In this document: piece by piece, positions 3,810-40,170 of the stretch
Layout of the letters: each line of letters begins with the position of its first letter
Position numbering within the stretch: the stretch's first letter is position 1
DNA from: an uncultured Gammaproteobacteria bacterium
GTDB lineage: Bacteria > Patescibacteriota > Patescibacteriia > Veblenbacterales > UBA10138
Assembly (NCBI GenBank): GCA_964348825.1
Contig: CAYGDX010000001.1
Span: 90,909-154,908 of the forward strand
Direction of reading: 5' to 3'
DNA: 64,000 bases
Notes under the pieces: generated by a model
Told to the model about the DNA's origin: nothing
Databases searched by the model: none
Seen by the model: only the letters and a program-made list of their open reading frames with translations
Made by a program: the position numbers and the translations under genes

Positions 3810-4076
3810 ATGCCTCTTGAATTAAGTGAATCAACCCAAGTACGTATGATGCTGGATGAAAACCAGCGTTTACTTGAAGAAATAAAGAAAAATACCGAAC
3901 GCACGCGGAAATATATTCTGTGGAGTCAGATTTTTTTGGTAGTTAGAATGCTTATAATAATTTTGCCATTGGTTGCCGGATTTATATTCCTCCGCCCATT
4001 TTTTAAAGAAGCGGGTAGTGCGTATGAAGATATAATCGGCAGTGGCGCGCTGGAAGTGCTGAAGAGTTTAAAGTAA
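3810..4076 (+). CDS. Hypothetical small membrane protein
   Basis: 88-aa ORF with one hydrophobic helix (IFLVVRMLIIILPLVAGFIFL). No homolog recognised. Confidence 0.3.
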   Translation: MPLELSESTQVRMMLDENQRLLEEIKKNTERTRKYILWSQIFLVVRMLIIILPLVAGFIFLRPFFKEAGSAYEDIIGSGALEVLKSLK

Positions 4077-4187
4077 GGGTGTAGCGTGTAGGGGGTAGGG
4101 TGTAGTATGCTTGCCCCGTGATCGTCATCAGACGATTTTACGGGGTCATTGCGAGGAGCGAGTAAGGCGAGCGACAAAGCAATCTCT
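4074..4187. repeat. Composite MITE-like repeat: G-rich gggtgtag segment + ccccgt..acgggg hairpin + gtcattgcgag..agcaatc (family A)
   Basis: Same modules recur at 23397-23448, 26011-26100, 26221-26262, 26535-26622, 38466-38545, 52855-52900, 53806-53980. Confidence 0.6.
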
Positions 4188-12649: not shown

Positions 12650-13220
12650 TGTGAAATTCCTTTGTTAATTAATGATTGAATAGTAATAATTTTGTGTATG
12701 CTTTTCCACTAGCCATGCCTTTTGGGTGTGGGTAGAGGATTGAATCGAAACTTGTTGTGCCTCGGGCGCTGTGAGTACCACGCTGGCAATGATTATAATT
12801 TGCAAAATGTTAAAGAACACTAATTTCTCCTTTTTGTTTTTATGATAAATATTTGTGTTCCCCGTAAAGCTCGCTTGCGCTCGCCACGGGGCACTGTTAA
12901 TTTTTTCTAGAATCTATTTTAGAATCTAGGACACAAAAGATGTATAAATATCATCTCCTGTCTTCTTTATTCTAAAATTTTAATTTAAGTTATTTGTTAA
13001 CAAATGCTTACTATCCTTTAATTTAAGTATACCTTATTTAACAATACATACTACCACATTTGTCAATTTCTGTCAAGAGTAGTGTTTTTGTGTATTTTTA
13101 TGCCAATTTTCGTGGTGTAAAATTGATCGAATTGTATTATTTTGATCTGATTGCTATAAAAAAGCCGTAGAAGTGGAGTTGTGTTAGTAAAAAATATGTT
13201 TTATAATATCATTATAATTC

Positions 13221-13258
13221 ATTATCTAATTATGTCCGGCCGGACATAATTAGATAAT
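13221..13258. repeat. Perfect 38-bp palindrome attatctaattatgtccgg|ccggacataattagataat, left copy
   Basis: Identical palindrome recurs at 13820-13855, so the pair brackets ORF 13274-13816. Confidence 0.8.
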
Positions 13259-13273
13259 AGAGATTAGTTTAAT

Positions 13274-13816
13274 ATGTTAAAACGAACTAAAACAATTAGT
13301 CAGATCATTTTGACCGCGCTTTATGGTAGCGGTTTGGCAATGGTTGAATTTCATAATTTTATCAATGATTTTAGGCGTTGGGGTTATCATTATGAAAGCA
13401 ATCGCGAATGGCAAAATTATTTAAAATACATAAAGAACAAAAAGAAGTCGTATCGCTTATTGTATAATCTAAAAAGAAGCAAATATATTAAAATCAATAA
13501 GACAGGCGATAAGATTATAGTAAGCTTAACTAATAAGGGTAAAATGGCAGCGCTTAAAAATAGTTTATTACAAACTAAAAAGATGTCAGATAAATATACC
13601 GTAGTGATTTTTGATATTCCCGAAACAGCGCGCTTAGCCAGGGTATTATTTAGAAAACTCTTAAAAGAAGCTAGCTTTAAAAAATTACAACAAAGTGTGT
13701 GGATATCGAATTGTGACGCTCGTGATATCATGATTAAATTTATTAAAGAACAAAAAATAGATAAGTGGGTGAATGTATTTTATGCTACCAATTTGTTCAA
13801 GAAGTCGAATTTATAA
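13274..13816 (+). CDS. Hypothetical protein: N-terminal winged-helix-like region + C-terminal Cas2/VapD-like domain
   Basis: C-terminal KYTVVIFDIPETARLARVLFRKLLKEASFKKLQQSVWIS resembles the Cas2 N-terminal strand-helix-strand (xxVVxYDIxx, RRxKVxKxL, RVQxSVF). N-terminal half is basic and wHTH-like. No cas1 or CRISPR array nearby. Confidence 0.35.
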   Translation: MLKRTKTISQIILTALYGSGLAMVEFHNFINDFRRWGYHYESNREWQNYLKYIKNKKKSYRLLYNLKRSKYIKINKTGDKIIVSLTNKGKMAALKNSLLQTKKMSDKYTVVIFDIPETARLARVLFRKLLKEASFKKLQQSVWISNCDARDIMIKFIKEQKIDKWVNVFYATNLFKKSNL

Positions 13817-13819
13817 TCG

Positions 13820-13855
13820 TTATCTAATTATGTCCGGCCGGACATAATTAGATAA
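13820..13855. repeat. Perfect 36-bp palindrome ttatctaattatgtccgg|ccggacataattagataa, right copy
   Basis: Starts 4 bp after the stop codon of the 13274-13816 ORF; identical to the copy at 13221-13258. Confidence 0.8.
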
Positions 13856-14024
13856 TAGTTAATTTTTTGATTTAAGTTGTTTTGGTTAAATATTGTGGAG
13901 TTATTGGTAGATATTAGTAAATTAATATGTATTCTATATAGCATATGTATAGAAGTTTGTTTTTAGATTGTTTAATTATGTAATTATTGTCGTGATTGGG
14001 AAAAAATGTTATAATTAATTTGAT

Positions 14025-15674: not shown

Positions 15675-15759
15675 GGTTTTACTTTAGTAATTAATGTATT
15701 AATGGTATAATAAATTGAGAATGACTGATTTTTCAAAAATCCGAAATTTATTTATTAAA

Positions 15760-15838
15760 CACTAGAACATTTAAACATTAGAACATTATTAATAAAAAAC
15801 TTTTTGTTCTTATGATCTAGTGATCTAATGTTCTAGTG
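15760..15838. repeat. Palindromic cactagaac / gttctaatgtt element (family D)
   Basis: cactagaacatttaaacattagaac...gttcttatgatctagtgatctaatgttctagtg. Related copies at 17944-18030, 21878-21912, 22270-22307, 27845-27925, 34888-34975, 43570-43632, 58048-58100, in both orientations. Confidence 0.65.
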
Positions 15839-15860
15839 ATAATTCCTTACTTCAACCATC

Positions 15861-16925
15861 GTGTCTTTTTTTTCTAAAACTCGTTCTTATTTAGGCGTTG
15901 ATTTAGGTACTGCTTCCATTAAAATTGTGGAGCTGGAAAATCGTGCCGGCACACCTACACTTCTTACCTATGGCTTTGCCGAATTGCCAGTGGATGAAAT
16001 TAAATTTGATGTACACGAAACCGTAGCACGTACGGCTAAAACTGTAGCTAAAATTTGTGCCGAGTCGCACACTAAATCACGTAAAGTGATAGCGGCTTTG
16101 CCAACTTTTTCGGTTTTTAGTTCGGTAATTACACTGCCAGTAATGAATGAAAAAGAAGTTGGGCAAGCACTGACTTATGAAGCCAAAAAAATTATTCCTT
16201 TGCCGATTGAAGAAATGGTGCTCGATTGGAAAATTTTAAAAGATAAGGTAGGTGCGCCGGCTAGTAATAAAAAAGATAAAACTATGCGCGTGCTTCTCAC
16301 TGCCGCACCGCGCACTTTGGTAAAAAAATATCAAGATATTTTTCAAGCTGCCAACCTAGAATTACTATCGCTTGAAACCGAGGCCTTTGCGCTGGAGCGA
16401 TCACTGCTTGGTTCTGATCCGGCAGTAACATTACTACTTGATGTTGGCGCGCTCACTACTGATTTAGTAATTGTGGAAGATCATGTGCCAATTTTAAATC
16501 GCAGTATTGATGTGGGTGGAGTAACCGCTACTAAAGCCATTGCCCAGAGTTTGAATGTGAATGAACATCGGGCTGAACAATTCAAGCGCGATGTGGGTAT
16601 GATTTCGGGCGGGGCGGGCAGTGGTGGCGTGGGTAAAGTAATTGAAAATACTTTTTCACCAATCATTAATGAAATAAAATATGCGCTTTCACTTTACCGC
16701 GTGGAAAGCACTTCACCGCTTGAAAAAATAATTTTAACCGGAGGTTCAGCTTGGCTACCAAATTTATCTGATTATTTGGCTACACTTTTTCAAGTAAAAG
16801 TGATTATTGGTGATCCGTGGGCGGCGGTATCATACCCCACTGATATAAAAGGTGTACTACAAGAATTAGGTCCGCGTTTTGGTACGGCAGTAGGTTTAGC
16901 AATGCGGGAGATTAAGAGTAGCTAA
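15861..16925 (+). CDS. pilM: Type IV pilus assembly protein PilM (actin-like ATPase fold)
   Basis: GTG start. SYLGVDLGTASIKIVELE N-terminus and overall actin/FtsA-like PilM architecture. Confidence 0.8.
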   Translation: MSFFSKTRSYLGVDLGTASIKIVELENRAGTPTLLTYGFAELPVDEIKFDVHETVARTAKTVAKICAESHTKSRKVIAALPTFSVFSSVITLPVMNEKEVGQALTYEAKKIIPLPIEEMVLDWKILKDKVGAPASNKKDKTMRVLLTAAPRTLVKKYQDIFQAANLELLSLETEAFALERSLLGSDPAVTLLLDVGALTTDLVIVEDHVPILNRSIDVGGVTATKAIAQSLNVNEHRAEQFKRDVGMISGGAGSGGVGKVIENTFSPIINEIKYALSLYRVESTSPLEKIILTGGSAWLPNLSDYLATLFQVKVIIGDPWAAVSYPTDIKGVLQELGPRFGTAVGLAMREIKSS

Positions 16926-17011
16926 GTTTAAATTCTAATATCGAATATCGAAATTCGAAAAAATTTAAAATTAATTTAGGATTTCGGATTTAGTGCTTCG
17001 GATTTTAAACT

Positions 17012-17935
17012 ATGGATCCCAATTTATTACCTAATGAATTACGTGTGGGCGAAAAGGAAGAATTGTCACATCCGCCCCAACCAACATCGGTAAAGCCAGA
17101 TGCGATTTTATCATCTAAAGAGAAAGACAGGGTAATTGAGCTTGATATAAATGTAGGTTTGTGGTCAAAAATTAAATCTTGGTTTAATAAAGACGAAGTA
17201 CTAACTAGTGCGGATGACAAATCAGCGCTTGAAAAAGGTGAGGTTGATTTTGGTAAAACTTCGGCTGGTAAAATTTTAGGGATTCCTACCCATCATGGCG
17301 TACCACTTGGTGTAGTGCTCGATGTAAATTTATTGCCGGTTGAATCGCGCCCAATTGAAGAAGCCAAGCGTTATGGTGTGCATTTTTTAGCCGTGGCCGG
17401 AGCAGCTATTTTAGTAGTGATTATTGGTTATGCAATTTTACTAAGTTTAAAATCAGCTAAAGAAGCAGAATATGCCGATTTACAACGTGAAGCAGAAATT
17501 TTAACCACCGATATTACTGGTTTTAATGTCAAGCTTAATGAATTAAAATTAACTGGCCGGCGTATGAAGGTAATTACTGAAATTCTGAGTATGCGTAGCG
17601 ATTGGTTGAAGTTTTTTGATACCTTGGAAGGGTTGATAATGCCTAATGTAAGTTTCACTTCGCTATCGCTTCAATCATCAGGTAATTTTGTACTCGGGGC
17701 CGAAGGTAAAACTGTGAGTGATTTGGCTAAACAATTTTTGGTTTTTCAAGAGGGTAAAGATATTTGGGCGGAAGTGGAAATGGCCGGTGTGAGTTTGGGT
17801 AGTGGATTAGTTGAGGAAGATAGTGGATTAAGTTCTAGTGCTTCCGATTCTACGGCCAGTACAACTTTTGAATTAAAATTAAAACCAGGTTGGCTTCAGG
17901 CAGGAGAGAAAGCGATTGGTAAGAGTGAAGAGTAA
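17012..17935 (+). CDS. pilN: PilN-like type IV pilus inner-membrane assembly protein
   Basis: Position after pilM, single TM helix (FLAVAGAAILVVIIGYAILL) followed by a coiled-coil periplasmic region. Confidence 0.5.
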   Translation: MDPNLLPNELRVGEKEELSHPPQPTSVKPDAILSSKEKDRVIELDINVGLWSKIKSWFNKDEVLTSADDKSALEKGEVDFGKTSAGKILGIPTHHGVPLGVVLDVNLLPVESRPIEEAKRYGVHFLAVAGAAILVVIIGYAILLSLKSAKEAEYADLQREAEILTTDITGFNVKLNELKLTGRRMKVITEILSMRSDWLKFFDTLEGLIMPNVSFTSLSLQSSGNFVLGAEGKTVSDLAKQFLVFQEGKDIWAEVEMAGVSLGSGLVEEDSGLSSSASDSTASTTFELKLKPGWLQAGEKAIGKSEE

Positions 17936-18055
17936 GAGTTTTTCACTAGAACATTAGATCACTAGATCATAAGAACAAAAAGTTTTTTATTAATAATGTT
18001 CTAATGTTTAAATGTTCTAGTGTTCTAATGAATAAGATTTAGAATTTTAATTACT

Positions 18056-18655
18056 ATGCCTCCAGTTAAATCAAAAAATCAAGTAAGCAAATGGGAGCGT
18101 GCTTTGGAAAAATATTTTCTGTGGCTGGCGCTTGGTTTGTCGATATTAATTATTATTTTAGGGGTGTGGTTTTTGTGGCGTCCGGTTTATAATGAGTGGC
18201 AAGGCGGAGTAGATTTAAATAAAGAAAGAAATGAATTACAAGTGGCGCGAGCACGCTTCGAGGTTTTAAAAAAATTATTTACTGATTGGGAAAATCTAAA
18301 GGTGAAACCTGCGGGGCGTGATTTGCCTTTGATTTTACCAAGTGAGGCCGAGGTGCCTAATTTATTGGTTCAGCTTGAAGCCATAGCGCGCGATACTGGT
18401 TTTAAATTACAAGGTATTGCGGTGAGTGAAGCGAGTGGTAAGGGAACATCTCGTAAAGGTGAATCAGGTGCTACTACAATTTCCGGTGCGCGACCAATTA
18501 AAATCACACTTAGTTTAGATGGCGCTACGTACCCCAAAGTTAAAACATTGCTTAAGGCCTTGGATCAGGCTTGGCGTTTAATTCAGGTAGATAGTTTTAC
18601 GGTGGGGCGCGATAGTGCTTTGAGTTTAGAATTAACTGCTTATTATTTCCCTTAA
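18056..18655 (+). CDS. pilO: PilO-like type IV pilus assembly protein
   Basis: Single N-terminal TM (FLWLALGLSILIIILGVWFLW), coiled-coil plus C-terminal alpha/beta region. Synteny pilM-N-O. Confidence 0.5.
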   Translation: MPPVKSKNQVSKWERALEKYFLWLALGLSILIIILGVWFLWRPVYNEWQGGVDLNKERNELQVARARFEVLKKLFTDWENLKVKPAGRDLPLILPSEAEVPNLLVQLEAIARDTGFKLQGIAVSEASGKGTSRKGESGATTISGARPIKITLSLDGATYPKVKTLLKALDQAWRLIQVDSFTVGRDSALSLELTAYYFP

Positions 18656-18658
18656 ATT

Positions 18659-19000
18659 ATGTTAGTAGCTAAAAGTTTGCCAATTGGAAAAACCTTAACT
18701 ATGATTAGTGTGGTAGTTGTAGCGTTAGGTACAATTTTGTATTTGGTGTATACTAATTTTATAGATACTTCATCGGCACCGGTAAGTGATACACCAGTAA
18801 CTACTGGTGTATCAACACTTGAAATTAGCGCGGCTGAGGCCAAGTTTAAATTACCTAGTGGACAAGTTTTGGATAAAAATTTCTTTACCCTGCCGGCAGT
18901 TGAGGAATTATTTAATTTTGGTGATTTGCCAGTAACTGCTACACCTGTGAAGCGAGATGATCCTTTCGCCCCCTTGCCAAGTACAAATAAACGGCGGTAA
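18659..19000 (+). CDS. Hypothetical membrane protein (possible PilP analogue)
   Basis: 113 aa with N-terminal TM. Position after pilO. No sequence motif recognised. Confidence 0.3.
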   Translation: MLVAKSLPIGKTLTMISVVVVALGTILYLVYTNFIDTSSAPVSDTPVTTGVSTLEISAAEAKFKLPSGQVLDKNFFTLPAVEELFNFGDLPVTATPVKRDDPFAPLPSTNKRR

Positions 19001-19047
19001 AATAGAAATAGTTTAAAAATAACTTTTTAATTAAATAAATAAAATTT

Positions 19048-19599
19048 ATGAGTATGCGTTTTTCTAAAATAAATGGCTTTACCCTCGTAGAGCTTTTAGT
19101 CGTAATTGCCATTATTGGTATTTTGTCATCACTTTCAGTGGTGTCGTTAAACTCTGCTCGTGGCCGCGCGCGCGATGCTCAACGTTATAATGATTTAAGG
19201 CAATTATTTACCGCGATGACGCTTTATTATGATACTCAAGTATCTACTCCGCAATATCCCAGTATGAGCGGTTCTGAAGAGGATAAATGGACTAGTGATA
19301 ATGATACTGCGAGTTGGTGGAATGGTATAGCAGGGCCTAATAGATTTTTCCCTACAGTTTTGAAAGATCCTGGGATTGGCAATACATCTGCTTATTCGTA
19401 TGCTGTGCAAGCCGAAACAAGTGCTGGTAAGGGGGATCTGCGACAACATTATTGTGTTTATACAAAATTAGAAGGCGCAGATAATTATTTAATTGTAACC
19501 GAGAGTGGTTTAAAATCTAAAGAGGGAACCCCCGAATTTACAGATAATTCAACAGTTTGCGATTGTACACCAGGTTTATGTGCAGAAGCTGGTTCGTAA
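19048..19599 (+). CDS. Type IV pilin (class III signal peptide, N-methylation motif)
   Basis: NGFTLVELLVVIAIIGIL...ARDAQRYNDLRQ prepilin leader and conserved N-terminal helix. C-terminal Cys pair. Confidence 0.8.
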   Translation: MSMRFSKINGFTLVELLVVIAIIGILSSLSVVSLNSARGRARDAQRYNDLRQLFTAMTLYYDTQVSTPQYPSMSGSEEDKWTSDNDTASWWNGIAGPNRFFPTVLKDPGIGNTSAYSYAVQAETSAGKGDLRQHYCVYTKLEGADNYLIVTESGLKSKEGTPEFTDNSTVCDCTPGLCAEAGS

Positions 19600-19641
19600 T
19601 TTTTTAGAATTTTGATATTAGGATTTAGAATTTAATTCAGT

Positions 19642-20052
19642 ATGCCCAAAAAGCAACCCAGTGGCATAATTCTTCTTATAGTAATAGTTGGGGTGGCGGT
19701 TTTATTGGCCGCCACTTTTGTTTTAATTACTGTCGGACGTAAACAGAATTTGACCAAACGTGAGGCAATTCGTTTAGAAAACTTACGCTTGATTTCTCAA
19801 GCGCAGGAATTTTATTTTGACCGCTTCCAAAAATATGGCTCGTTTGAGGAGTTGATTAAGGCTCGTTTATTAGATGAAATTCCGCGTGACAACAAGAATG
19901 AAAAAGGTTATAATTTATATCGCAGTACTAAAGAGGATGAGTGGTGTGTGTGGTTAGAAATGGAGCAGCAAAATCCGCCGTATTTAAGCCTTGGCTCGCA
20001 CGGTCAAAAAAAATTAATAATACCGCCGATTGATTTAGAAACATGTAAGTAA
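19642..20052 (+). CDS. Pilin-like protein lacking canonical prepilin cleavage motif
   Basis: N-terminal TM plus KREAIRLENLRLISQAQEFYF, resembling the pilin N-terminal helix region. No G-F-T-L-[IV]-E motif. Confidence 0.3.
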   Translation: MPKKQPSGIILLIVIVGVAVLLAATFVLITVGRKQNLTKREAIRLENLRLISQAQEFYFDRFQKYGSFEELIKARLLDEIPRDNKNEKGYNLYRSTKEDEWCVWLEMEQQNPPYLSLGSHGQKKLIIPPIDLETCK

Positions 20053-20119
20053 AATCCGAATATCGAAATCAGAAATACAAAAACTTTGAACTATTGACTA
20101 ATAACTTTGAACTTAGTGT

Positions 20120-21874
20120 ATGGCTGACGAAGCAATCATGGCAAAATCAGGTAACACCGGTGATATTGGTGATTTTTTAGTTACCCAAAATATTTTAACC
20201 GTGGCGCGTTTAGCTGAATATAGAAAAATTGCACAAGCTGAACAGCGAGGCATTGAGGAAGTTTTAATGGAGCGTGCGGCGCTTACCCCTGAAGCACTAC
20301 TTAAAGCTAAAAGTGCTTTTTATGGATTACCAGCAGTTGATTTAACCCAACAAGCCGTGACTGAAATGGTGCTACGCTTAGTGCCACTTGAACTCGCCCA
20401 ATACTATCAATTAGTACCTTTCCGGCGTGACAACAACGACGTGTGGATTGCTTTGGTACATCCAGAAAATTATAAATCAATGGAAGCAGTTGATGTTTTA
20501 GGACGTCAGCACGGCTGGAAACCAAAATATGCGATTACCACTTCCACTTCGTTACTTAAAGTGCTTCGTCAATATAGTTCGCTTACTTCCGAAGTCGGTG
20601 AGGCCTTAAAAATGGCGGAAGATGACGATCAATCAGCCCTAAGGCAAGATGAAAATGTACAAGAATTTGAAGAAGTTTTAAAAGCCGCACCGGTGGCGAA
20701 AATGGTGGCCTCAATTCTCCGGCACGCGGTAGAAGGTGGTGCTTCGGATATTCATATTGAACCAGGCGATGCCGATAGTCGCGTGCGTTTTCGAGTTGAC
20801 GGCATTCTTCGTACCTCACTTACCTTACCGAAATATATTCACTCGGCGGTTATATCGCGTATTAAAGTACTAGCTAATTTAAAAATCGATGAAACCCGAC
20901 AACCGCAAGATGGTCGTATTCGTTTACGAGTGGTGGATAAAGTAATTGATTTTCGTATTTCCACTATGCCAGTAATTGGTAATGAAAAAGTGGTGATGCG
21001 TATTTTGGATCCAACGACCGGCGTGCGTACTTTTGAGGGTTTGGGTTTTACTGGTCAAAAATTACGCATCCTAAAAGAAGCAATTCAAAAACCGCATGGC
21101 ATGTTCTTAGTTACTGGGCCAACGGGTAGTGGTAAAACAACCACGCTTTACGCCGTGCTCAATATTTTAAATCGCGAAGAAGTAAATATTATTACACTAG
21201 AAGATCCAGTGGAATATTTTATGGGTGGTGTGAACCAATCGCAAGTGAACCCGGAAGTGGGTTATACTTTTGCCAATGGTCTTAGATCAATTCTTCGGCA
21301 AGACCCCGATATTATTATGGTTGGTGAAATTCGTGACTCGGAAACTGCGGAGCTTGCGATTCATGCTTCGCTCACTGGTCACATACTACTTTCAACTCTC
21401 CACACCAATGATGCGCCGGCCGCAATTTTGCGTTTAACCGATATGCACATTGAACCGTTTTTAATTGCCTCCACTGTGAATGTAATAATTGGTCAACGTT
21501 TGGTCAGAAAATTATGTGAAAGTTGCCGCAAACCCAGCACTCTGCCGCCAGAAATGCTTAAGAAAATTCAAGAATCGTTTGCTGGAATGGGCGCGGGAGC
21601 GAAAGAAGAAGTTCCAGCTGAACCGTGGACAACTTATGAAGCGGGTTCCTGCTCACACTGTGAAAATTCTGGTTACAGGGGTCGGGTGGCGATTACAGAA
21701 ATACTAGCCAATACGCCGGAATTGCAAAAAATAATTGCCGATGGCGCCAAGCCCCACGAACTAAAAGCTGAATTTGTACGCCAAGGTAGTACTAGTTTGA
21801 TGCAAGATGGATATTTGAAAGTGCTTACAGGTATGACATCGCTCGAGGAAGTGCTCACTGCGGCGCAGGACTAA
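20120..21874 (+). CDS. pilB: Type IV pilus assembly (extension) ATPase PilB / GspE family
   Basis: Walker A GPTGSGKTT, Walker B DPDIIMVGEIRD, His box GHILLSTLHTNDA, tetracysteine CESC...CSHC. 584 aa with N-terminal GspE-N domain. Confidence 0.9.
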   Translation: MADEAIMAKSGNTGDIGDFLVTQNILTVARLAEYRKIAQAEQRGIEEVLMERAALTPEALLKAKSAFYGLPAVDLTQQAVTEMVLRLVPLELAQYYQLVPFRRDNNDVWIALVHPENYKSMEAVDVLGRQHGWKPKYAITTSTSLLKVLRQYSSLTSEVGEALKMAEDDDQSALRQDENVQEFEEVLKAAPVAKMVASILRHAVEGGASDIHIEPGDADSRVRFRVDGILRTSLTLPKYIHSAVISRIKVLANLKIDETRQPQDGRIRLRVVDKVIDFRISTMPVIGNEKVVMRILDPTTGVRTFEGLGFTGQKLRILKEAIQKPHGMFLVTGPTGSGKTTTLYAVLNILNREEVNIITLEDPVEYFMGGVNQSQVNPEVGYTFANGLRSILRQDPDIIMVGEIRDSETAELAIHASLTGHILLSTLHTNDAPAAILRLTDMHIEPFLIASTVNVIIGQRLVRKLCESCRKPSTLPPEMLKKIQESFAGMGAGAKEEVPAEPWTTYEAGSCSHCENSGYRGRVAITEILANTPELQKIIADGAKPHELKAEFVRQGSTSLMQDGYLKVLTGMTSLEEVLTAAQD

Positions 21875-21912
21875 ATAATCATAATAACATTAGATCACTA
21901 GAACATTAGAAC

Positions 21913-22272
21913 ATGAGTCAAGAATTCAGAGAGCAGTTAAAAAAGAAAATGGACGAATATGTAAAATTAGTTTATCGCGTGACTAAAAATTATCCCCGCG
22001 ACGAGTTATATGGAGTAACTTCACAATTAAGAAGATCAACCCTATCCGTGATATTAAATTATTTAGAGGGTTATGCCAGGCGCCGAATTCCAACTTGCTA
22101 TCATTTTTGGGAAATATCTTATGGTTCGTTACAAGAAAGTAGATATTTATTAGATTTATCATTAAATGAAAATTATTTATTAATTGAAAATCACAAAACA
22201 TTAAGTGTTTTAGCTGATGAAATTAGTGCTATGCTCTGGCAATCCTTGAAGAATTTAGAAAAATACAAATAG
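21913..22272 (+). CDS. Four-helix-bundle protein (23S rRNA intervening-sequence protein family)
   Basis: SQLRRSTLSVILNYLEGYARRR matches the 'four helix bundle protein' family signature. Bracketed on both sides by family D repeats. Confidence 0.7.
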   Translation: MSQEFREQLKKKMDEYVKLVYRVTKNYPRDELYGVTSQLRRSTLSVILNYLEGYARRRIPTCYHFWEISYGSLQESRYLLDLSLNENYLLIENHKTLSVLADEISAMLWQSLKNLEKYK

Positions 22273-22307
22273 TTAATGTTTAAGTGTTCTAATGTTTTAA
22301 TGTTCAA

Positions 22308-23390
22308 GTGTTTATGTCCACCACCGACTCCTTAACCATCAATCGCTTGCTCACTGAAGCCGCAGAAAGGCAGGTATCTGACCTTCATTTTACTGTTGGT
22401 GCAAATCCAGCCGCGAGGCGTGACGGCAAGCTTGAAACATTAAACGCCGAGCCACCCGTCACCGAAGAATTTATGAAAGGGTTGGTCGAATTTTTTATTC
22501 CGGAGAATAAGAGAGCTCGTTTTGCCAGCGCGCAAACTTTAACCTTAACTTATAATTTTGGCACACGCGCTCGTTTTCGGGTGCACGGAAGCTACCAAAA
22601 GGGTTATCCAGCTTTAGATTTACATTATGTACCATGGCAAGCGCCCGACGTTACAACTATGGGTTTGCCTAAAATTTTACTTAATTCTATAAAAGAAAAA
22701 GAGGGATTGATTCTTTTGAGTGGTTTGCAGGGGTCAGGCCGTAGTGCTACGCTCGCGGCGCTACTTGATAATATTAATCATACACAAGCTAAACATATTG
22801 TAACGATTGAAGATCCAGTGGAGTATTTACTGACCAACGATAAATCATTTATCAAACAAAAAGATGTCGGTGATGATATTCCAAGTGTGGAAGATGCTTT
22901 GGGTGGCCTTAAAGATGAAGATGTAGATGTGCTAGCGATTGATGTACCGCTTAATATGGCGGCTTGGCGCGAAATTTTTACACGGGCGCGGAGCGGCACT
23001 TTAGTTTTTGTGGCGATGGAAGCCGATACTTCAGTGCGGGCGCTAGAATCACTTATTTTAAGTTGGCCGGGTGCTGAAGCTGATAGTTTAAAACAATTAT
23101 TAAGCGAAACACTTCTCATTGCTACTTCACAGCGCTTAGTGCCACGCGTTGGCGGTGGTAAGGTAATGGTAGTAGAATGTTTACTTGGTAATACGCCGGT
23201 TAAATCATTAATTCGCGATGGTAAGATTTTACAACTCCAAAATGTACTGGAATTATCGCGTGAAGATGGTATGGTGTCACTCGAAAAAAGATTGTCTGAT
23301 TTAGTAAAAACTGGAGAAATTACACAAGAAGATGCAGTAGCTCACGCTGTGAACAAAGAGGTGATTGGGTCGATGTTGCGGGTGAAGTAA
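22308..23390 (+). CDS. pilT: PilT-like retraction-ATPase homolog with degenerate catalytic motifs
   Basis: PilT-length GspE-family core. Walker A is GLQGSGRSAT (Lys to Arg, Pro to Gln). Walker B region DEDVDVLAIDVP lacks the catalytic Glu. His-box GTLVFVAMEA lacks the His. Confidence 0.7.
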   Translation: MFMSTTDSLTINRLLTEAAERQVSDLHFTVGANPAARRDGKLETLNAEPPVTEEFMKGLVEFFIPENKRARFASAQTLTLTYNFGTRARFRVHGSYQKGYPALDLHYVPWQAPDVTTMGLPKILLNSIKEKEGLILLSGLQGSGRSATLAALLDNINHTQAKHIVTIEDPVEYLLTNDKSFIKQKDVGDDIPSVEDALGGLKDEDVDVLAIDVPLNMAAWREIFTRARSGTLVFVAMEADTSVRALESLILSWPGAEADSLKQLLSETLLIATSQRLVPRVGGGKVMVVECLLGNTPVKSLIRDGKILQLQNVLELSREDGMVSLEKRLSDLVKTGEITQEDAVAHAVNKEVIGSMLRVK

Positions 23391-23641
23391 TTTTTAGGGT
23401 GTAGCGTGTAGGGTGTAGTTCGTCATTGCGAGCTTCAGCGAAGCAATCCCTAGTAAATCCCCAAATCCCAATCCCTAAGATTGAATTTTAAATTATAAAT
23501 TTTAAGTCAATTTTTAATTAAAACATTTAGTTTTTGATTAAAAACCCGTAAAGGTCTCGTGGAGACCCACGCGTTTCTTTACGAGATTTAAAATTAAAAA
23601 TTTAGTTATTTTTAGAAATTAGATATTAGAAATTTTCGTTC

Positions 23642-24850
23642 ATGTCCTTATTCTCCTACGAAGCCAAAGATCTCGAAGGCCGTGCCTTAAAAGGCATGGT
23701 TGATGCGGCATCGCATGCCGCTGCCGTGGAAATTTTAACCGACAAAGGCCTTACCCCAATTACAGTCGAAGAAAAAAAGGTGAGTCGTTTGCAATTTTTA
23801 TTTGGCAATCAAATTTCGCGCATTAAGATCAAAGATATTGTAGTATTGTCGCGTCAGCTTTCGGTGATGGCTTCTGCCACTGTACCAATTGTGCAAGCAC
23901 TTAGAATTTTAGAAAAACAAACCGCCAATCCTAAACTTAAAGTAATAATTTCCGAAATTGCCGATGAAGTAGAAGGTGGTGCCAAATTTTCCTCTACGCT
24001 GGCCAAATATCCCGATGTGTTTTCCGACTTTTATATCAATATGGTGGCGAGCGGTGAAACCTCAGGTAAGCTCGATGAAGTGCTGAATTATTTAGCAGAT
24101 GAACAAGAAAAAAATTACGATATGATTAGTAAAATTCGCGGGGCGATGATTTATCCGGCTTTTATTTTGGGTGGGTTACTTTTAGTTGGCGCGGTGATGA
24201 TGATTTTCGTGGTGCCGAAACTCACTTCAATTTTAGTGGAATCAGGCGTGGCCCTGCCACTTTCTACACGAATCCTAATTGGCTTTAGTAATTTTTTAAG
24301 AAATTTTTGGTGGTTATTTTTAATAATGCTGGTGGGCGGGGGAATTGGTTTTCGTTATGGTGTAAAAACTCCAAAAGGAAGGCACTTGTGGCATTTAATT
24401 CAGCTTAAAATTCCGGTGGTTGGCACAATTTATCAAAATATTTATTTAGTGCGCTTTACTCGTTCAATGTACACGCTAATTGTTGGTGGTGTGCCTTTAA
24501 CTCGCAGTTTAGCCATCGTTTCCGATGTGGTGGGTAATGCTGTATTTAAACAAATTATTGATGAAACAATTAAAGAGGTAGAAGATGGCAATTCCATTGC
24601 CACTGTGTTTTCACAAACCAAAGTAATTCCTTCAATGGTATCACAAATGATGATTGTGGGTGAAAAAACTGGGCGACTCGAGGAAGTATTTAAACGTTTA
24701 TCCGACTTTTATACTCGCGAAGCTAATAATTTAGTGGCCAATTTAGTAACCTTGCTTGAGCCAATGGTGATGCTTGTAATGGGTGTATCAGTGGGGTTTA
24801 TGGTTTCGGCGATACTGTTGCCTATGTATAGGTTGTCCTCCGGCGCTTAG
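23642..24850 (+). CDS. pilC: Type IV pilus inner-membrane platform protein PilC (GspF family)
   Basis: 402 aa, two GspF-type repeats with three TM segments. Typical PilC topology and motifs. Confidence 0.85.
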   Translation: MSLFSYEAKDLEGRALKGMVDAASHAAAVEILTDKGLTPITVEEKKVSRLQFLFGNQISRIKIKDIVVLSRQLSVMASATVPIVQALRILEKQTANPKLKVIISEIADEVEGGAKFSSTLAKYPDVFSDFYINMVASGETSGKLDEVLNYLADEQEKNYDMISKIRGAMIYPAFILGGLLLVGAVMMIFVVPKLTSILVESGVALPLSTRILIGFSNFLRNFWWLFLIMLVGGGIGFRYGVKTPKGRHLWHLIQLKIPVVGTIYQNIYLVRFTRSMYTLIVGGVPLTRSLAIVSDVVGNAVFKQIIDETIKEVEDGNSIATVFSQTKVIPSMVSQMMIVGEKTGRLEEVFKRLSDFYTREANNLVANLVTLLEPMVMLVMGVSVGFMVSAILLPMYRLSSGA

Positions 24851-24894
24851 AGTAAAATCCTAAATCCTAAACCCTAAATTCTAAACAATATCAA

Positions 24895-25263
24895 ATGACA
24901 GAAAATCAAAATTCAAAACAGTATAATTTAGAAGATAGGACACTTTGTTTTGCTAAAGAAATTGGTATTTATGTTAATAAATTGCCGTTTACAGTGCCTA
25001 ATAAGGAATACGGTAAGCAGTTAGTGCGTTCCGCGAGTTCGGTAGGCGCAAATTATCTTGAAGCTAATGAAGCATTAAGCAAAAAAGATTTTTTAATGCG
25101 GATTAAAATTTCTCGTAAAGAAGCTAAAGAAACTCGCTTTTGGCTACAATTAACCGAGCCATTACCAGAAATGAATAGCGCTAGAGATAAATTTATTCAA
25201 GAAATTACTGAATTAATGAAGATTTTTGGAGCAATTATAGAAAAATCTAAACCTAATGTTTAA
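24895..25263 (+). CDS. Four-helix-bundle protein (second copy)
   Basis: VRSASSVGANYLEANEALSKKDFLMRIKISRKEAKETRFWLQL matches the same family as 21913-22272. Confidence 0.7.
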   Translation: MTENQNSKQYNLEDRTLCFAKEIGIYVNKLPFTVPNKEYGKQLVRSASSVGANYLEANEALSKKDFLMRIKISRKEAKETRFWLQLTEPLPEMNSARDKFIQEITELMKIFGAIIEKSKPNV

Positions 25264-25382
25264 TGTTTTATAATTTTGGATTTGTTTAGTATTTAGATAT
25301 TAGAATTTAGGATTTAAATAAAACGCCATTGTGTACTTATTTGCCTAGTGTTATAATTATATCGTCAAATAGAATATTATAA

Positions 25383-25922
25383 ATGAAAGGGGGTGAGACA
25401 ATGAACATTCGTAAAGGCTTTACGTTGATAGAATTATTGGTGGTGATTGCCATCATAGGCGTCTTGTCCACCCTAGCGGTGGTGTCGTTTCAAGGGGCAA
25501 GAGGAAAGGCAAGAGATGCTCAACGTTTAAGTGCGGTAAAAGCTCTTCAACAAGGCTTGGAATTTTATTATAATGATAATGATAGTAGTTATCCTCTAGC
25601 GCATACCACTGCTATTAAATTATCTAATGATACTGCTAAGACGAATTGTCTTGACAGTAATGGATTTAAGGATGGAAGTACAACAACACCATGTGTGGAT
25701 CCTATATATTTAAAGACCATAAATGATGATCCATCACCAGGAGTTTTGTGGTATTATCTGAGTAATGGAAGTGATACTATACCAGCAACTAAATATGCTA
25801 TAGCTGTTAAGATGGAAGGCAATACTAATCCATATAAAGTGGGGTGGAATTGTATGCTTAATGATGGATCCTTAGGTGTAGTAACAGAAACTAATGATGT
25901 GCCAGCTTGTACAATACCATAA
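25383..25922 (+). CDS. Type IV pilin (major pilin candidate)
   Basis: KGFTLIELLVVIAIIGVLSTLAVVSFQGARGKARDAQR prepilin leader/helix. Own rho-independent terminator downstream. Confidence 0.8.
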   Translation: MKGGETMNIRKGFTLIELLVVIAIIGVLSTLAVVSFQGARGKARDAQRLSAVKALQQGLEFYYNDNDSSYPLAHTTAIKLSNDTAKTNCLDSNGFKDGSTTTPCVDPIYLKTINDDPSPGVLWYYLSNGSDTIPATKYAIAVKMEGNTNPYKVGWNCMLNDGSLGVVTETNDVPACTIP

Positions 25923-25940
25923 TAATTTTTAAAACATTTA

Positions 25941-25979
25941 ACCCTCTTCCGTCCACACGGGGGAGGGTTTTTGTTTTTA
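25941..25979 (+). terminator. Rho-independent terminator after pilin gene
   Basis: aaccctc-ttccgtccacacgggg-gagggtt followed by tttttgttttt. Confidence 0.65.
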
Positions 25980-26274
25980 TGGTATGATTAGTGATAGATT
26001 GGGTGTTAATGAGCAGTTGTCATTGCGAGTGAGTCATCAGACGAGCGACGATTTGTCCGCCGTAGCTTTAGCGAAGGTGGAAGCAATCTATCAAAATCAC
26101 TAATAACTAATTCCTAATTTCTAAAAATTCCCAAGACCCAAATCCCAAAATTTAGACATTAGTCATTAGATATTTTTAGAAATTAGATATTAGACATTAG
26201 AAATTTATTTTTTAGAGATTGCCACGCCCTCGCTCTTTTCGCTCGGGCTCGCAATGACATAACACTCTTACTCT

Positions 26275-27102
26275 ATGCTCTTACTAATCTTCATCTTCGG
26301 CCTCTGTCTCGGCAGTTTTTTAAACGTCCTCATTCTCCGCCTAAAAGACGACAAGTCAATTCTCGGTCGTTCGCAGTGTCCAAAGTGTTTAAGGCAACTT
26401 AAATGGTTTGAAAATATTCCACTACTTTCTTTTATTTTTTTACGCGCGAAATGTGCTTCGTGTAATCAACCAATCTCTTGGCAATATCCTTTAGTAGAAT
26501 TTACGAGCGGGGTTTTGTGGGTTACATCCTACTTTGTCATTGCGAGCCAAGCGAAGCAATCCCTCGTTTTAGCAACAGAGATTGCCACGTCGTCCGCTTC
26601 GAGCGTCCTCCTCGCAATGACACAAAACGATTGGCTGGCTATGTTTACTTTTGGTGTATTCGTAACCATTTTACTCATTCTTTTTGTTTTTGACTTTCGT
26701 TGGTACATTTTACCTGATCAAATTACCATTCCTGCCATCGTTATCACCATAATTTTACAATTACTACTCGGCGTTTCCATTATTAATTTACTTATCGCAG
26801 GATTATCTGGTGCGGCTTGGTTTGGCGCGCAATATTTTGTATCAAAAGGTAAATGGGTGGGTGATGGTGATATTCGCCTTGGCGCTTTAATTGGTTTAAT
26901 GCTTGGCACTTGGCAGTTACTTTTAACCACTTTTTTTATCGCTTATATTGGTGGCGCCATTATTGCCGTTATTTTATTGTTACTAGGCAAAGTAAAACGT
27001 GGGGCGAAACTGCCAATGGGAGCGTTTTTGACAACAGCAACGATAATTGGGCTGATGTATGGTAAAATAATATGGGAATGGTATATAGGATTAATATGGT
27101 GA
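26275..27102 (+). CDS. pilD: Prepilin peptidase PilD (A24 family) carrying an in-frame repeat insertion
   Basis: N-terminal CxxC-x21-CxxC zinc domain (CPKC...CASC), A24 core with GDGDIRLG Asp motif. Residues VIASQAKQSLVLATEIATSSASSVLLAMTQN are encoded by a family A repeat. Confidence 0.8.
   Translation: MLLLIFIFGLCLGSFLNVLILRLKDDKSILGRSQCPKCLRQLKWFENIPLLSFIFLRAKCASCNQPISWQYPLVEFTSGVLWVTSYFVIASQAKQSLVLATEIATSSASSVLLAMTQNDWLAMFTFGVFVTILLILFVFDFRWYILPDQITIPAIVITIILQLLLGVSIINLLIAGLSGAAWFGAQYFVSKGKWVGDGDIRLGALIGLMLGTWQLLLTTFFIAYIGGAIIAVILLLLGKVKRGAKLPMGAFLTTATIIGLMYGKIIWEWYIGLIW
26535..26622. repeat. Family A repeat (tgtcattgcgag..agcaatc..ctcgcaatgaca) inserted in-frame within pilD
   Basis: Same inverted-repeat module as intergenic copies (e.g. 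4146-4185, 53824-53929). Reading frame of pilD is uninterrupted. Confidence 0.75.
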
Positions 27103-27242
27103 TTGAATCACTAATCACTAATTCCTAATATCTAAAAATCACCAAGATCCAAACCTCAATCCCAAAATTTAGTCATTAGACATTAGTCATTTTTAGAAAT
27201 TAGAGATTAGTTATTAGACATTATATAAGTTAGTACATAATC

Positions 27243-29562: not shown

Positions 29563-30429
29563 TTGATTTATAAGATGTTCAAATTTTCAATTTTCAATTC
29601 CAATACTTTTTTTCCTCGCGGTAATGTACTTTTACTCGCCCTCCTTATGCTTGCCGGAGGTATGGTGGGCACTTTGGCTTTGACCTCAATTGTTACCAGC
29701 CAACTTCGCCAGTCGCGCGTGATTGATGCGGGTATGATTGCGCACTACGAAGCCGAATCGGCTTTGGAAGAAGGTTTGTATAGTGCTCGTAAATTAGAAG
29801 AGATTGATATTGCAAGCGCTCCAGATTGTTCAGCTAATGCAACAACTGGTGATTTGGGTTGTACTACAGTAAATTTTAGGCAGGAATTTGCGGGATCAGC
29901 GGATGTTTTGGTGTCATCTCTAAAAACCGACGAAACATTTGAATTAGATGTTAGTGAATCATCAATTATTGGTTTGACTTTAGAATGGTATCCAGCTCAC
30001 GATTATAATTTTGGACCACAATTAGCTATTACTTATGTTAATAATGAAAATGGTGTACCAACAATAACTCGCCCGGTGAATGGAGTATCTGGAGCGCCAT
30101 TCAATTGTGTTTCTAGTGACCCAGATACAATTTGTGAAAATCCATCATCCGCCTTAGACTTAGAAAATAATACCGAAAAAGTTCGTTTTCGTGCTCTATC
30201 TCCACAAAGTGTGGCAGCGTTAGATGGTGGTGATATAAAAAATTTAAAAATTAGACCAGTTTGTTTGGCGGGTGTTAGCCCATGTGTATTTAATAAGTAT
30301 GTTAAATTAAAAACCCGTGGTAAAAAAGGTGATGTGGGTTATACTGTGCAAGTTAGCATACCTACTTCCGTACCAGCTTATGGTATTGCTGATTATGTAT
30401 TATTCTCGGAGCAGGAAGTTAAGAAGTGA
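29563..30429 (+). CDS. PilX-like minor pilin
   Basis: RGNVLLLALLMLAGGMVGTLALTSIVTSQLRQS resembles the PilX N-terminal domain. Confidence 0.4.
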   Translation: MIYKMFKFSIFNSNTFFPRGNVLLLALLMLAGGMVGTLALTSIVTSQLRQSRVIDAGMIAHYEAESALEEGLYSARKLEEIDIASAPDCSANATTGDLGCTTVNFRQEFAGSADVLVSSLKTDETFELDVSESSIIGLTLEWYPAHDYNFGPQLAITYVNNENGVPTITRPVNGVSGAPFNCVSSDPDTICENPSSALDLENNTEKVRFRALSPQSVAALDGGDIKNLKIRPVCLAGVSPCVFNKYVKLKTRGKKGDVGYTVQVSIPTSVPAYGIADYVLFSEQEVKK

Positions 30430-30430
30430 A

Positions 30431-32671
<2,241 letters not shown>

Positions 32672-32682: not shown

Positions 32683-32841
32683 TGTGTCATTCCCGTGAAT
32701 CCGCCATCCGTCAACTGGTCGGAGGCGGAGGGAATCCAGAGACAAGTTGTTTCGAACCTAGAAGCTAGAATATAGAATCTAGATAAGTGCAGTCCAAATT
32801 ATAACTTCTAACTTTTATATTCTAAATTCTGGACACTTTGG
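32683..32841. repeat. Composite repeat, second copy flanking ligA
   Basis: gtgtcattcccgtgaatccgccatccgtcaactggtcggaggcggagggaatcc ... ctagaagctagaatatagaatctagataagtgcag ... ggacactttgg; matches 30431-30659. Confidence 0.65.
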
Positions 32842-35570: not shown

Positions 35571-35793
35571 ATTTAAAATCCTAAATCCGAATATCTAAAT
35601 CCTAAATAAATCCCAATGATTAAAAGCCAAAATTGAATTTTAAATTATAGATTTTAAATCAATTTTTAATGACTTAATTTTAAAACATTTAAATATTTAT
35701 TAATTTAATCATTGAATAAAAATTTAAAATTAAAAATTTTAGTTATTTTTTAGAAATTAGATATTAGAGATTAGAAATTTTGAAAATTGCTTT

Positions 35794-36534: not shown

Positions 36535-36590
36535 GAGTTTTTTAAAAATCCGAAATTCGAATATCTAAATCCTAAATAAATTCCAAAAGT

Positions 36591-36760
36591 CGTGCGGCCT
36601 CGTCGTAGGGTTTGTACAGAGCGCAAGGCAAACGAGCGTCCGGTTCGGGCGTGCTGTGGTAGTTGTGCATAGCCCGAACCAGCTCGTTTGGCGAGCACTG
36701 TTCAAACCCGAAGACACAGGCCGCGATTCTTGGTTACTTCTATTAAAGAAGTAACAAAAT
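36591..36760 (+). repeat. Structured about-170-nt element (family C), forward orientation; possible small ncRNA or cruciform-forming MITE
   Basis: Long stem caaacgagcgtccggttcgggc...gcccgaaccagctcgtttg plus terminal hairpin ggttacttct-attaa-agaagtaacc. Related copies at 37667-37853 (reverse), 39899-40170 (with about 100-nt hairpin insertion), 52622-52850 (diverged). Confidence 0.5.
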
Positions 36761-39618: not shown

Positions 39619-39696
39619 TGGCGGGCCCGGCCGGATTCGAACCGGTGATCTTCTCCGTGACAGGGAGACGTGTTAACCGGGCTACACCACGGGCCC
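39619..39696 (-). tRNA. tRNA-Asp (anticodon GUC), CCA encoded
   Basis: Reverse complement folds as GGGCCCG-TG-GTGT-AGCCCGGTTA-ACAC-G-TCTCC-CTGTCAC-GGAGA-AGATC-ACCGG-TTCGAAT-CCGGC-CGGGCCC-G-CCA. Perfect 7-bp acceptor stem, U33, A37. One A.C mismatch closing the T-stem. Confidence 0.7.
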
Positions 39697-39790: not shown

Positions 39791-39898
39791 CGCTTTATTA
39801 ATATAGCAGAAACAATATTTATTTCAAGGGGTATATTAAAAATCCTAAATCCGAAACCCAAACTTCTAAATAAATCAAAAATCCCAATTCCCAAAAGT

Positions 39899-40170
39899 CG
39901 TGTGGCCTCGTCGTAGGGTTTGTACAGAGCGCAAGGCAAACGAGCGTCCGGTTCGGGCGTGCTGTGGTAGTTGTGCACCCGCCTGCCGAAGCTGTTTCCC
40001 CAAGTTAACGTACGATGATTAGTATACTTTAGTTAACTATTAGAAATACTAAAACTAAGTTGGGCTAGCGGCGGGCAGGTAGCCCGAACCAGCTCGTTTG
40101 GCGAGCACTGTTCAAACCCGTAGACAAAGGCCGCGATTCTTGGTTACTTCTACTAAAGAAGTAACAAAAT
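39899..40170 (+). repeat. Family C structured element with about 100-nt hairpin insertion
   Basis: Same 5' (cgtgtggcctcgtcgtagggtttgtacagagcgcaaggcaaacgagcgtccggttcgggcgtgctgtggtagttgtgca) and 3' (agcccgaaccagctcgtttggcgagcactgttcaaacccg...ggttacttctactaaagaagtaac) arms as 36591-36760. Inserted stem-loop cccgcctgccg...cggcgggcaggt. Confidence 0.5.

Follow-up and report, generated by a model that had tools for sequence, protein, structure and literature searches.

A winged-helix/Cas2-like protein family of Patescibacteria encoded between paired perfect palindromes, its predicted operators

What are two identical, perfect palindromes doing on either side of one small gene? The question is raised by a 64-kb stretch of DNA (hereafter the window) from an uncultivated Patescibacteria (CPR) bacterium, in which the perfect 36-nt palindrome TTATCTAATTATGTCCGG|CCGGACATAATTAGATAA (the bar marks the dyad) occurs exactly twice, at 13222-13257 and 13820-13855, and encloses a 180-aa open reading frame (Table 1). 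The ATG lies 16 nt past the upstream palindrome and the stop codon 3 nt ahead of the downstream one. Identity between the two copies spans 39 bp, that is, the palindrome plus TAG, and similarity ends there. The sequence was matched 0 times in 100 shuffles, and elsewhere in the 64-kb window there are neither further 36-nt copies with up to 3 mismatches nor stray half-sites. A whole-window scan for other long zero-loop palindromes returned a single unrelated one, with 13-nt arms, at 18787-18814. The initial annotation had described two identical perfect palindromes bracketing the reading frame and seen nowhere else in the window, and this description holds, with coordinates right within one base. 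When it is folded as single-stranded DNA, the palindrome reaches -14 kcal/mol, with a z of -7.7 relative to shuffled sequences, and the search for known RNA families gave only sub-threshold microRNA-hairpin noise. The neighbours of the gene in the window are surface proteins and a type IV pilus cluster. As had also been noted at the outset, cas1 and a CRISPR array are missing: the window holds no array-like tandem repeat, and no Cas1 was found among the ten open reading frames of 258-440 aa that were scanned. These ten have other functions, and no paa genes were seen in the window.

Table 1. Coordinates of the palindrome-bracketed gene and its associated features within the 64-kb window.
Feature	Position	Strand	Remarks
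P0001 gene, winged helix + Cas2-like (short PaaX-like) protein	13274..13816	+	180 aa
Winged helix-turn-helix domain	13295..13570	+	residues ~8-99; predicted recognition helix 56-68, wing 72-85
Cas2-like (PaaX_M) domain	13580..13792	+	residues 103-173, beta-alpha-beta-beta-alpha-beta
Upstream palindrome	13221..13258	.	38 bp perfect; 36-bp unit common to downstream copy
Upstream palindrome anatomy	dyad between 13239 and 13240		core TGTCCGG|CCGGACA, A/T tract AATTA, outer arm TTATCT
Downstream palindrome	13820..13855	.	36 bp perfect; begins 4 nt past stop codon; same sequence as upstream copy
T run	13863..13868	+	7 nt beyond downstream palindrome
Candidate promoter TTGTGT-17-TATAAT	13179..13207	+	read by eye, weak at -35

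An important first step is to establish what kind of protein is encoded between the palindromes. The Pfam model PaaX_M (PF20803) matches the C-terminal domain of P0001 at 52.1 bits against a cut-off of 24 (7e-14, residues 103-173), and TIGR01573 (cas2) does so at 25.7 against 24.5; Pfam CRISPR_Cas2 reaches 20.5, below its cut-off of 23.8, and Cas2 chains in the PDB match at E 0.01-0.03. In an AlphaFold model (pLDDT 80), helices 44-54 and 56-68 and a wing at 72-85 make up a winged helix, and the domain that comes after it has the order beta-alpha-beta-beta-alpha-beta. When this model was compared with the PDB by Foldseek, the top match was E. coli PaaX (8a39, E 5e-5), followed by type II-A Cas2 proteins, with target-normalised TM-scores of 0.5-0.66, and by the PaaX-like Rv0674 and 3l09. 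The Cas2-like domain carries the motif F-D-I-P-E x5 R x3 R ... Q-x-S-V-W, in which the conserved Asp follows strand 1; the invariant residues include neither a His-hydrophobic-His motif nor a Tyr. The winged helix can be assigned through more distant matches. Its 90 N-terminal residues match the winged-helix part of the PADLOC model for Csa3-type CARF-wHTH proteins (4e-8), DUF6293_C scores 24.1 bits, below its cut-off of 27, and matches to ArsR/AspA-like domains are weak. The architecture first proposed from the letters of the sequence, in which a winged helix at the N terminus precedes a Cas2-like domain of ferredoxin type that keeps the conserved Asp, is thus supported by PaaX_M and Foldseek, with TIGR01573 just above its cut-off.

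The nearest named relative of P0001 is the repressor PaaX. PaaX of E. coli W (PDB 8A39), which represses phenylacetate catabolism, resembles P0001 in placing a winged helix at the N terminus and a Cas2-like domain next to it, in the centre of the protein, and it is both the best fold match and, through PaaX_M, the best Pfam match. PaaX binds palindromic promoter operators, including those of its own operon, represses the paa genes and is released by phenylacetyl-CoA. P0001 differs in being about half the size: PaaX_C (PF08223) gives no match at E <= 10, the model of the PaaX N-terminal domain is absent from its Pfam matches, and only 7 residues follow the Cas2-like domain. Two distant relatives of 246-252 aa (P0016 and P0017) do carry PF08223, together with the same motif. 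To our knowledge, Patescibacteria have no phenylacetate pathway, and any effector of P0001 would thus differ from that of PaaX. The genetic setting is different as well, with putative operators that bracket the gene, that can be perfect over 36-52 bp, and that come with several paralogs per small genome. Cas2, which in the Cas1-Cas2 complex is a dimer stretched along duplex DNA, has the fold of P0001 and the same motif: [FY]-D-[IV], then Arg residues in helix 1, then Q-x-S-V-[FW]. P0001 differs in its fusion to a winged helix and in its surroundings, as no CRISPR array was found in the window and no Cas1 among the ten reading frames scanned. In the case of Csa3-type regulators of cas genes, the likeness is restricted to the winged helix, since P0001 has no CARF domain and its partner domain is Cas2-like. 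Csa3 binds palindromic promoter sites (PMC4333418).

P0001 belongs to a large family. A library of representatives at 50% identity yields 5,604 clusters at E <= 1e-3 and 2,906 at 1e-10, with a typical member length of 160-190 aa, and a survey of species-representative genomes confirmed no fewer than 517 loci, almost all of them in Patescibacteria MAGs and often 3-5 per genome. Members are annotated as hypothetical, 'PaaX' or 'Cas2'. Across 156 representatives, conserved positions fall almost entirely within the Cas2-like domain: D114 and R123 are 100% conserved and P116, R127, S141 and W143 are 99% conserved, while the winged helix is poorly conserved and keeps few structural residues. That conservation peaks in the Cas2-type Asp and Arg, and not in the DNA-reading helix, hints at a role beyond dimerisation and counts against the plain operator reading favoured below.

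A Cas2-like fold with a conserved Asp can also be expected of a toxin, and a toxin module was indeed among the initial suggestions. Such a protein would be a stand-alone VapD/Cas2-like toxin with a fused, antitoxin-like DNA-binding domain, working as a one-gene module, and autoregulation through palindromic operators is generally known to be typical of toxin-antitoxin operons. However, type II (VapD-like) systems are two-gene operons, whereas here a single gene lies between the palindromes, and no conserved partner gene accompanies the family gene in any locus examined. PADLOC recognises the Cas2 and CARF-wHTH domain models in P0001 and no toxin model, synteny is stable, many paralogs sit beside housekeeping genes, and the closest fold is that of the repressor PaaX. 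The family looks like one of regulators, and we find a toxin scarcely credible. A phage or defence origin was likewise rejected: P0001 has no PHROG match, no relatives were found in viral contigs, and the PADLOC matches are those two domain models only.

The gene-palindrome association is a property of the family. In a syntenic ortholog (L001, 83% aa identity, same neighbours) palindromes stand at both equivalent positions; they have the core ATTATGTCCGG|CCGGACATAAT as in the window, and their outer arms differ but are still perfectly self-complementary. A paralog locus between a giant protein gene and rplJ-rplL (L005) has its own palindrome pair, with the same core and at the same positions. 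Relatives of this kind come from groundwater (the Hainich H52 assemblies). The association can be quantified in the 37 closest loci from other Patescibacteria (33-83% identity), where a long palindrome was defined by at least 14 matched pairs and a loop of at most 2. By this definition 18 loci have an upstream palindrome, 26 a downstream one and 14 both. In total 44 long palindromes lie in 16.5 kb of gene flanks compared with 6 in 184 kb elsewhere, an enrichment of about 80-fold. Where the long upstream site is missing, a short version with the same core usually takes its place (L018, L028, L044, L046, L073 and L105). Since the bracket recurs family-wide, the palindromes are most likely the protein's own binding sites. 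The same comparison speaks against a recently mobile 635-bp cassette, a reading that could be taken from the self-contained cassette of the initial annotation: the gene is syntenic at 83% aa identity in a related genome, and neither viral relatives nor an empty site (both flanks without the gene) were found for the palindrome-bearing subfamily.

Alignment of the sites outward from the dyad reveals three zones. Positions 1-7 form a conserved core, GGCCTGT when read outward (left arm ...TGTCCGG|). Positions 8-12 are A/T in 79-100% of sites, and in 96-100% at positions 9-11. Farther out, from position 13 on, the sequence is not conserved and only complementarity continues, to arm lengths of 14-29. 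Perfect palindromes in the family reach 36-52 bp, and 48 of 58 family-adjacent sites have a loop of 0, with palindromy running through the centre. The apical sequence is conserved between proteins of merely 35-45% identity. Some loci have variant cores, and in each case the variant is common to both copies of its locus; examples include ACCACGG (L016), ATCCCGG (L038), CATCCGG (L034) and GTAACGA (L055), as well as TCACGG, CCGCCGA and TACCCAG. The upstream and downstream copies within a locus are in fact usually identical, non-conserved arms included. A comparison by eye of the recognition helix (helix 3) with core type was uninformative, and identity of the winged helix correlates weakly with identity of the outer arms, no more strongly than does that of the Cas2-like domain (27/500 in a Mantel-type test).

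The position of the upstream copy relative to the promoter is informative. Upstream sites were scanned for sigma70-like promoters within 80 nt of the dyad, and such a promoter points toward the gene at 15 of 29. In 12 of these 29 sites the -35 hexamer starts 11-13 nt from the dyad, a register that is found in 3/29 in the opposite direction, in 1/34 of the downstream copies in each direction and in 6/88 orphan palindromes. For instance, ortholog L013 has TTGACT-17-TATAGT with the -35 inside the right arm. In several loci the -10 element lies 6-8 nt ahead of the ATG, which suggests that the predicted mRNAs would be leaderless or nearly so. In the window itself no promoter exceeds the scan threshold. 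If the candidate listed in Table 1 were used, transcripts would begin near 13214, with the palindrome covering about +7 to +44. The window palindrome ends so close to the ATG that it must overlap either the core promoter or the 5' end of the transcript. The lack of a good promoter that can be placed in the window does count against an operator reading.

A different view of the same arrangement is offered by a distant subfamily of 43 Microgenomates-type loci (Daviesbacteria and others), which have no long palindromes. Upstream of the gene, 38 of the 43 have a short palindrome centred on CGATCG or CGGCCG. Of these 38, 25 show a -35 hexamer that agrees with TTGACA in 5 or 6 of its positions and lies 8-17 nt upstream of the palindrome, and 32 show a -10-like hexamer just past it. 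The typical layout is TTGACA, 10 nt, CGATCG, TACAAT, 8 nt, ATG, so that the palindrome sits inside the promoter spacer. A second short copy is found from just before to 25 nt past the stop codon in 26/43 loci. Chance would give roughly 3 loci with the upstream site and 1.5 with the one at the stop codon. The downstream neighbours are diverse housekeeping genes, mostly co-directional, and the idea of a conserved downstream target gene in this subfamily was rejected on that ground. Because the distant subfamily has the same two-site plan, the predicted operator-gene-operator layout is, as judged from these comparisons, ancestral in the whole family, and the long perfect arms in the window are probably an elaboration of one branch.

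These observations also decide about a more mundane possibility, namely that the palindromes are ordinary bidirectional intrinsic terminators or insulators that flank a small gene by chance and have nothing to do with the protein. The downstream stem with its T run does pass a simple, loose scan for terminators on the + strand, this part of the genome has about twice as many canonical terminator-like hairpins as expected (28 compared with 14.7), and orphan copies, described below, follow the 3' ends of genes. Yet the roughly 80-fold enrichment is seen beside this gene family only, the apical sequence is conserved across divergent proteins, no consistent T run follows the palindromes across the family, and short versions that are not hairpins occupy the same two positions in the distant subfamily. 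In 8 cases, the window among them, the upstream copy lies in a divergent intergenic region and so is not simply the terminator of a preceding gene; the fixed promoter register adds to this. The generic terminator reading was rejected on the family-specific enrichment and the promoter register and is close to refuted, which leaves it highly improbable. Among the three roles first offered for the palindromes (operators for autoregulation, recombination sites and bidirectional terminators), autoregulation is the best supported, by the family-wide bracket and the promoter geometry, and generic terminators have dropped out.

With moderate confidence, we favour the reading that the palindromes are cognate operators of a dimeric regulator encoded between them, with negative autoregulation and with the downstream copy as a second operator. 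P0001 would be a short PaaX-type regulator that binds both flanking palindromes. By analogy to PaaX and Cas2, the Cas2-like domain may form a dimer and thereby present two winged helices symmetrically to the palindrome. In a plausible geometry, the Cas2-like dimer would sit on the conserved 14-bp core and each winged helix on one arm, and the complex would cover about 36-40 bp, which matches the length of the sites. At the upstream copy, which lies over the promoter or the 5' end of the gene itself, bound protein would shut off transcription. The downstream copy, conserved at the stop codon, could act as a second operator, either by looping the ~600-bp gene with the first or by stopping RNA polymerase where the gene ends, and the long downstream stem of this subfamily might double as a terminator hairpin and so insulate adjacent genes. 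The sequences themselves show the family-wide pairing of gene and palindromes, the conserved core, and the two set positions, near promoter-like elements and at the stop codon; that the protein binds there, dimerises and represses, and what the downstream copy does, we infer. Pairs of operators of this kind are well known: lac O1/O2 and gal OE/OI cooperate by DNA looping, with one copy at the promoter and another several hundred bp downstream. The difference is that here the second putative operator stands exactly at the end of the regulator's own gene and is conserved there family-wide.

Judged by its predicted function, the system is of a kind already known, a winged-helix autoregulator with palindromic operators. 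It stands out in three respects: the partner domain is Cas2-like and keeps its catalytic-type residues, the bracket recurs family-wide, and the palindromes are long and perfect and also exist as orphans. A literature search found no description of this family or of its palindromes and their arrangement, and a search for work on the structure and operators of PaaX gave nothing of relevance. The genomes of Patescibacteria are tiny, regulators that can be recognised in them are few, and experimental genetics hardly exists for the group. A large multi-copy family with an explicit cis-element provides a directly testable protein-site pair for an uncultivated phylum. Moreover, a Cas2-type domain whose catalytic-type Asp and Arg are fully conserved, and which would work on palindromic repeats independently of CRISPR, is relevant to the question of what Cas2 did before, or does besides, spacer acquisition.

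The length and perfection of the sites call for separate consideration, as a regulator needs no perfect palindrome of 36-52 bp, and this counts against the operator reading. The outer arms change at a roughly neutral rate, and pairing is nonetheless kept. For example, two strains that are 99.2% identical over 7 kb (L126 and L151) share an orphan palindrome whose sole change is a mirrored double substitution, an event with a chance probability that we estimate at ~3e-4. The palindromes of the window and of ortholog L013 differ likewise by mirrored substitutions and a mirrored indel. Outer arms that are self-complementary yet unconserved point to hairpin or cruciform formation or to templated correction of one arm by the other. 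The symmetry itself has three possible sources: binding by a symmetric dimer, extrusion of hairpins or cruciforms, and the perfecting of quasi-palindromes by template switching, a process through which perfect arms can arise neutrally. Whatever the source, perfect, fast-evolving and always self-complementary arms are a clean natural case for the study of how long palindromes are maintained in bacterial chromosomes.

Stems kept by compensatory change also speak for one alternative, in which the palindromes are hairpins in the 5' and 3' UTRs and the protein, as a Cas2/VapD-type ribonuclease, binds or cleaves its own mRNA and the 3' ends of other mRNAs. Sites at gene 3' ends would suit such a role, the upstream copy in the window is probably inside the transcript, and some Cas2 and VapD proteins are ribonucleases (PMC3351183 and general knowledge). 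The mismatches, 41 in 940 pairs, comprise 12 G.T, 6 A.C and 23 others; this slight excess of G.T over A.C could be taken as a sign of wobble pairing, but the difference is not significant and G.T pairs are rare overall. An RNA hairpin has no need of the loop-0 centres, and these, together with the rare and unbiased mismatches, place the symmetry at the level of DNA and argue against a selected RNA hairpin. In most relatives the upstream copy is upstream of or within the promoter and would hence be untranscribed, and winged helices and PaaX bind duplex DNA. We regard an RNA-level role as very unlikely.

Copies away from the gene also sit uneasily with the operator reading. When metagenome contigs were scanned for WWATGTCCGGCCGGACATWW, 67 loci came up; 18 of them adjoin a family gene and many are at contig ends. 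Genuine orphans include copies after topA, between dprA and topA, between convergent genes, and beside IS200-like and IS5-like transposase genes. They lie 10-120 bp past the 3' ends of unrelated genes (17 tandem, 6 convergent and 2 divergent) and have neither linked promoters nor a regular T run. Orphans that follow 3' ends and are promoter-free do not form the pattern of a classical regulon, and this counts against the operator reading. Orphans and a gene-flanking copy from the same samples have outer arms in common, and one orphan (L137) is an apparent hybrid of two others. The possibility that the palindrome is a common, genome-wide REP-like element had been raised in the initial annotation as a refutation; in this window that is not the case, whereas elsewhere orphans with the same core do occur after unrelated genes.

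These copies give substance to an unlikely but serious alternative, that of a REP/RAYT-like or CRISPR-repeat-like element, selfish or domesticated, in which the winged helix guides an active Cas2-like, metal-dependent nuclease to dispersed palindromes, to cut or process them in hairpin or cruciform form. The gene's place between two copies would then follow from duplication or recombination of the element at such sites, and the orphans would be its targets or remnants. As in REP/RAYT systems, the gene is flanked by a class of palindrome that is also scattered between genes after 3' ends, convergent pairs included, and there are several paralogs per genome, some with their own variant core. The arms shared with same-sample orphans, the hybrid-like L137, the mirrored changes through which palindromes remain perfect, the identity of both copies down to unconserved arms, as for a duplicated target, and the full conservation of the Cas2 catalytic-type Asp can all be read in its favour. 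However, P0001 is not an HUH/Y1 (IS200-like) enzyme, it has no HUH/Tyr or integrase motif, and no Cas1 was found among the reading frames scanned. REP/RAYT systems have tens to hundreds of dispersed copies per genome, and the copy number seems low by comparison (2 in 64 kb here, ~0.03/kb in other loci). The palindromes are perfect and loop-less, and the upstream copy is integrated in the promoter, which also differs from REP/RAYT. Syntenic positions in related genomes, the neighbours kept at 47% identity in a second locus type, and the failure to find an empty site or viral relatives argue against such an element as well; perfect arms need no nuclease if they can arise neutrally by template switching, and the promoter-embedded short sites of the distant subfamily are better explained by regulation. 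The arrangement also differs from CRISPR, as ~600 bp separate the two repeats and the gene itself lies between them, with unrelated genes as neighbours in related loci.

A bolder version of this idea can be formulated, and we think it quite unlikely: winged-helix/Cas2-like proteins and loop-less palindromes would together be a hitherto unrecognised hairpin-DNA system, a functional analogue of REP/RAYT built on a Cas2 nuclease. If so, the protein would cut or remodel extruded palindromes and so keep their arms perfect, copy the palindrome to both sides of its gene, much as CRISPR repeats are doubled when a spacer is acquired, seed orphans after other genes, and let the enclosed gene flip. Such a system would be a relative of the CRISPR adaptation module, but a free-living one that needs no Cas1 to act on repeats. 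A single case would fit such a flip, and it also favours the REP/RAYT-like alternative: L005 and L008 have both flanks conserved but carry the cassette in opposite orientations, exactly the inversion that recombination between the two flanking palindromes would produce.

The stretch of DNA 3' of the downstream palindrome is conserved beyond its surroundings. Between the window and the syntenic ortholog locus, L001, this non-coding stretch is approximately 85 to 90% identical, while the adjacent coding DNA reaches only 78 to 79%. The motif TGTTGTGGA is also found 3' of the palindrome in the paralog locus, L005. The conserved stretch may be a promoter, a leader, or a small RNA. A palindrome scan of the whole window revealed a single sizeable palindrome other than the pair that brackets the gene, and this may be another operator. 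Its position is given in the table, together with those of the RNA genes, the type IV pilus cluster, and the longer repeats.

Palindromes with the same core can also be found beside unrelated genes in other genomes and metagenome contigs. These orphan copies adjoin an IS200-like tnpA gene in L143 (12-525) and an IS5-like transposase gene in L116 and L142 (L116 777-1258). The palindrome in L137 (346-379) is an apparent hybrid, with a left flank like that of the L120 copy and a right flank like that of the L105 copy, a resemblance which suggests recombination between palindrome copies. Many of the core matches in metagenomes are located no more than about 50 nt from where a contig ends, and short-read assemblies may thus often be broken by the long palindromes.

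In the distant, Microgenomates-type subfamily (L047-L092), the predicted -10 element ends approximately 8 nt before the ATG (e.g., L059 2950-3000), and the mRNAs of these regulators thus appear, as judged from promoter sequence, to be leaderless or nearly so. One member, L082, has a near-duplicate of its promoter-proximal sequence, complete with an ATG, directly after the palindrome copy at the stop codon.

Features of the window and of other loci
Feature	Position	Strand	Description
Non-coding stretch	13886-14020; L001 5620-5760; L005 5610-5640		downstream palindrome to next gene
28-bp palindrome	18787-18814		TGATACACCAGTA|ac|TACTGGTGTATCA; unrelated to gene-bracketing pair
Core match near contig end	L095, L097, L101, L112, L114, L131, L133, L148, L152, L156		
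Type IV pilus gene cluster	15861-27102		downstream of palindrome-bracketed gene
PilM-like	at 15861		pilus cluster
T2SSE ATPase	at 22308		pilus cluster
T2SSF platform protein	at 23642		pilus cluster
Prepilin peptidase	at 26275		pilus cluster
tRNA gene	39622-39696	-	
tmRNA gene	55027-55408	+	
Repeat family D20	36578-36669, 39886-39977		92 nt, G+C-rich, two copies, 97% identical
Repeat family D17	4071-4106, 23391-23426, 30429-30464, 59542-59577, 62058-62093		G-rich, GGGTGTAG-type, five places
Repeat family D13	30504-30659, 32686-32841		156-nt direct repeat, 89% identical, copies 2.2 kb apart
Periodic motif runs (families D1-D11; also listed by TRF)	15755-15840, 17943-18030, 26093-26211, 27104-27228, 35572-35785, 56377-56838, and others		

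Among the longer repeats, D20 lies in a genome that is A+T-rich. An Rfam search with this repeat returned no family at the gathering threshold; the repeat may represent a structured RNA or a leader. The two copies of D13 enclose a 671-aa ORF. Many intergenic regions of the window contain runs of motifs with a period of 7 to 8 nt, of the types TTAGAAAT, TTAGATAT, TAATGTTC, and TTTAGGA, and these runs often form inverted blocks on both sides of gene boundaries.
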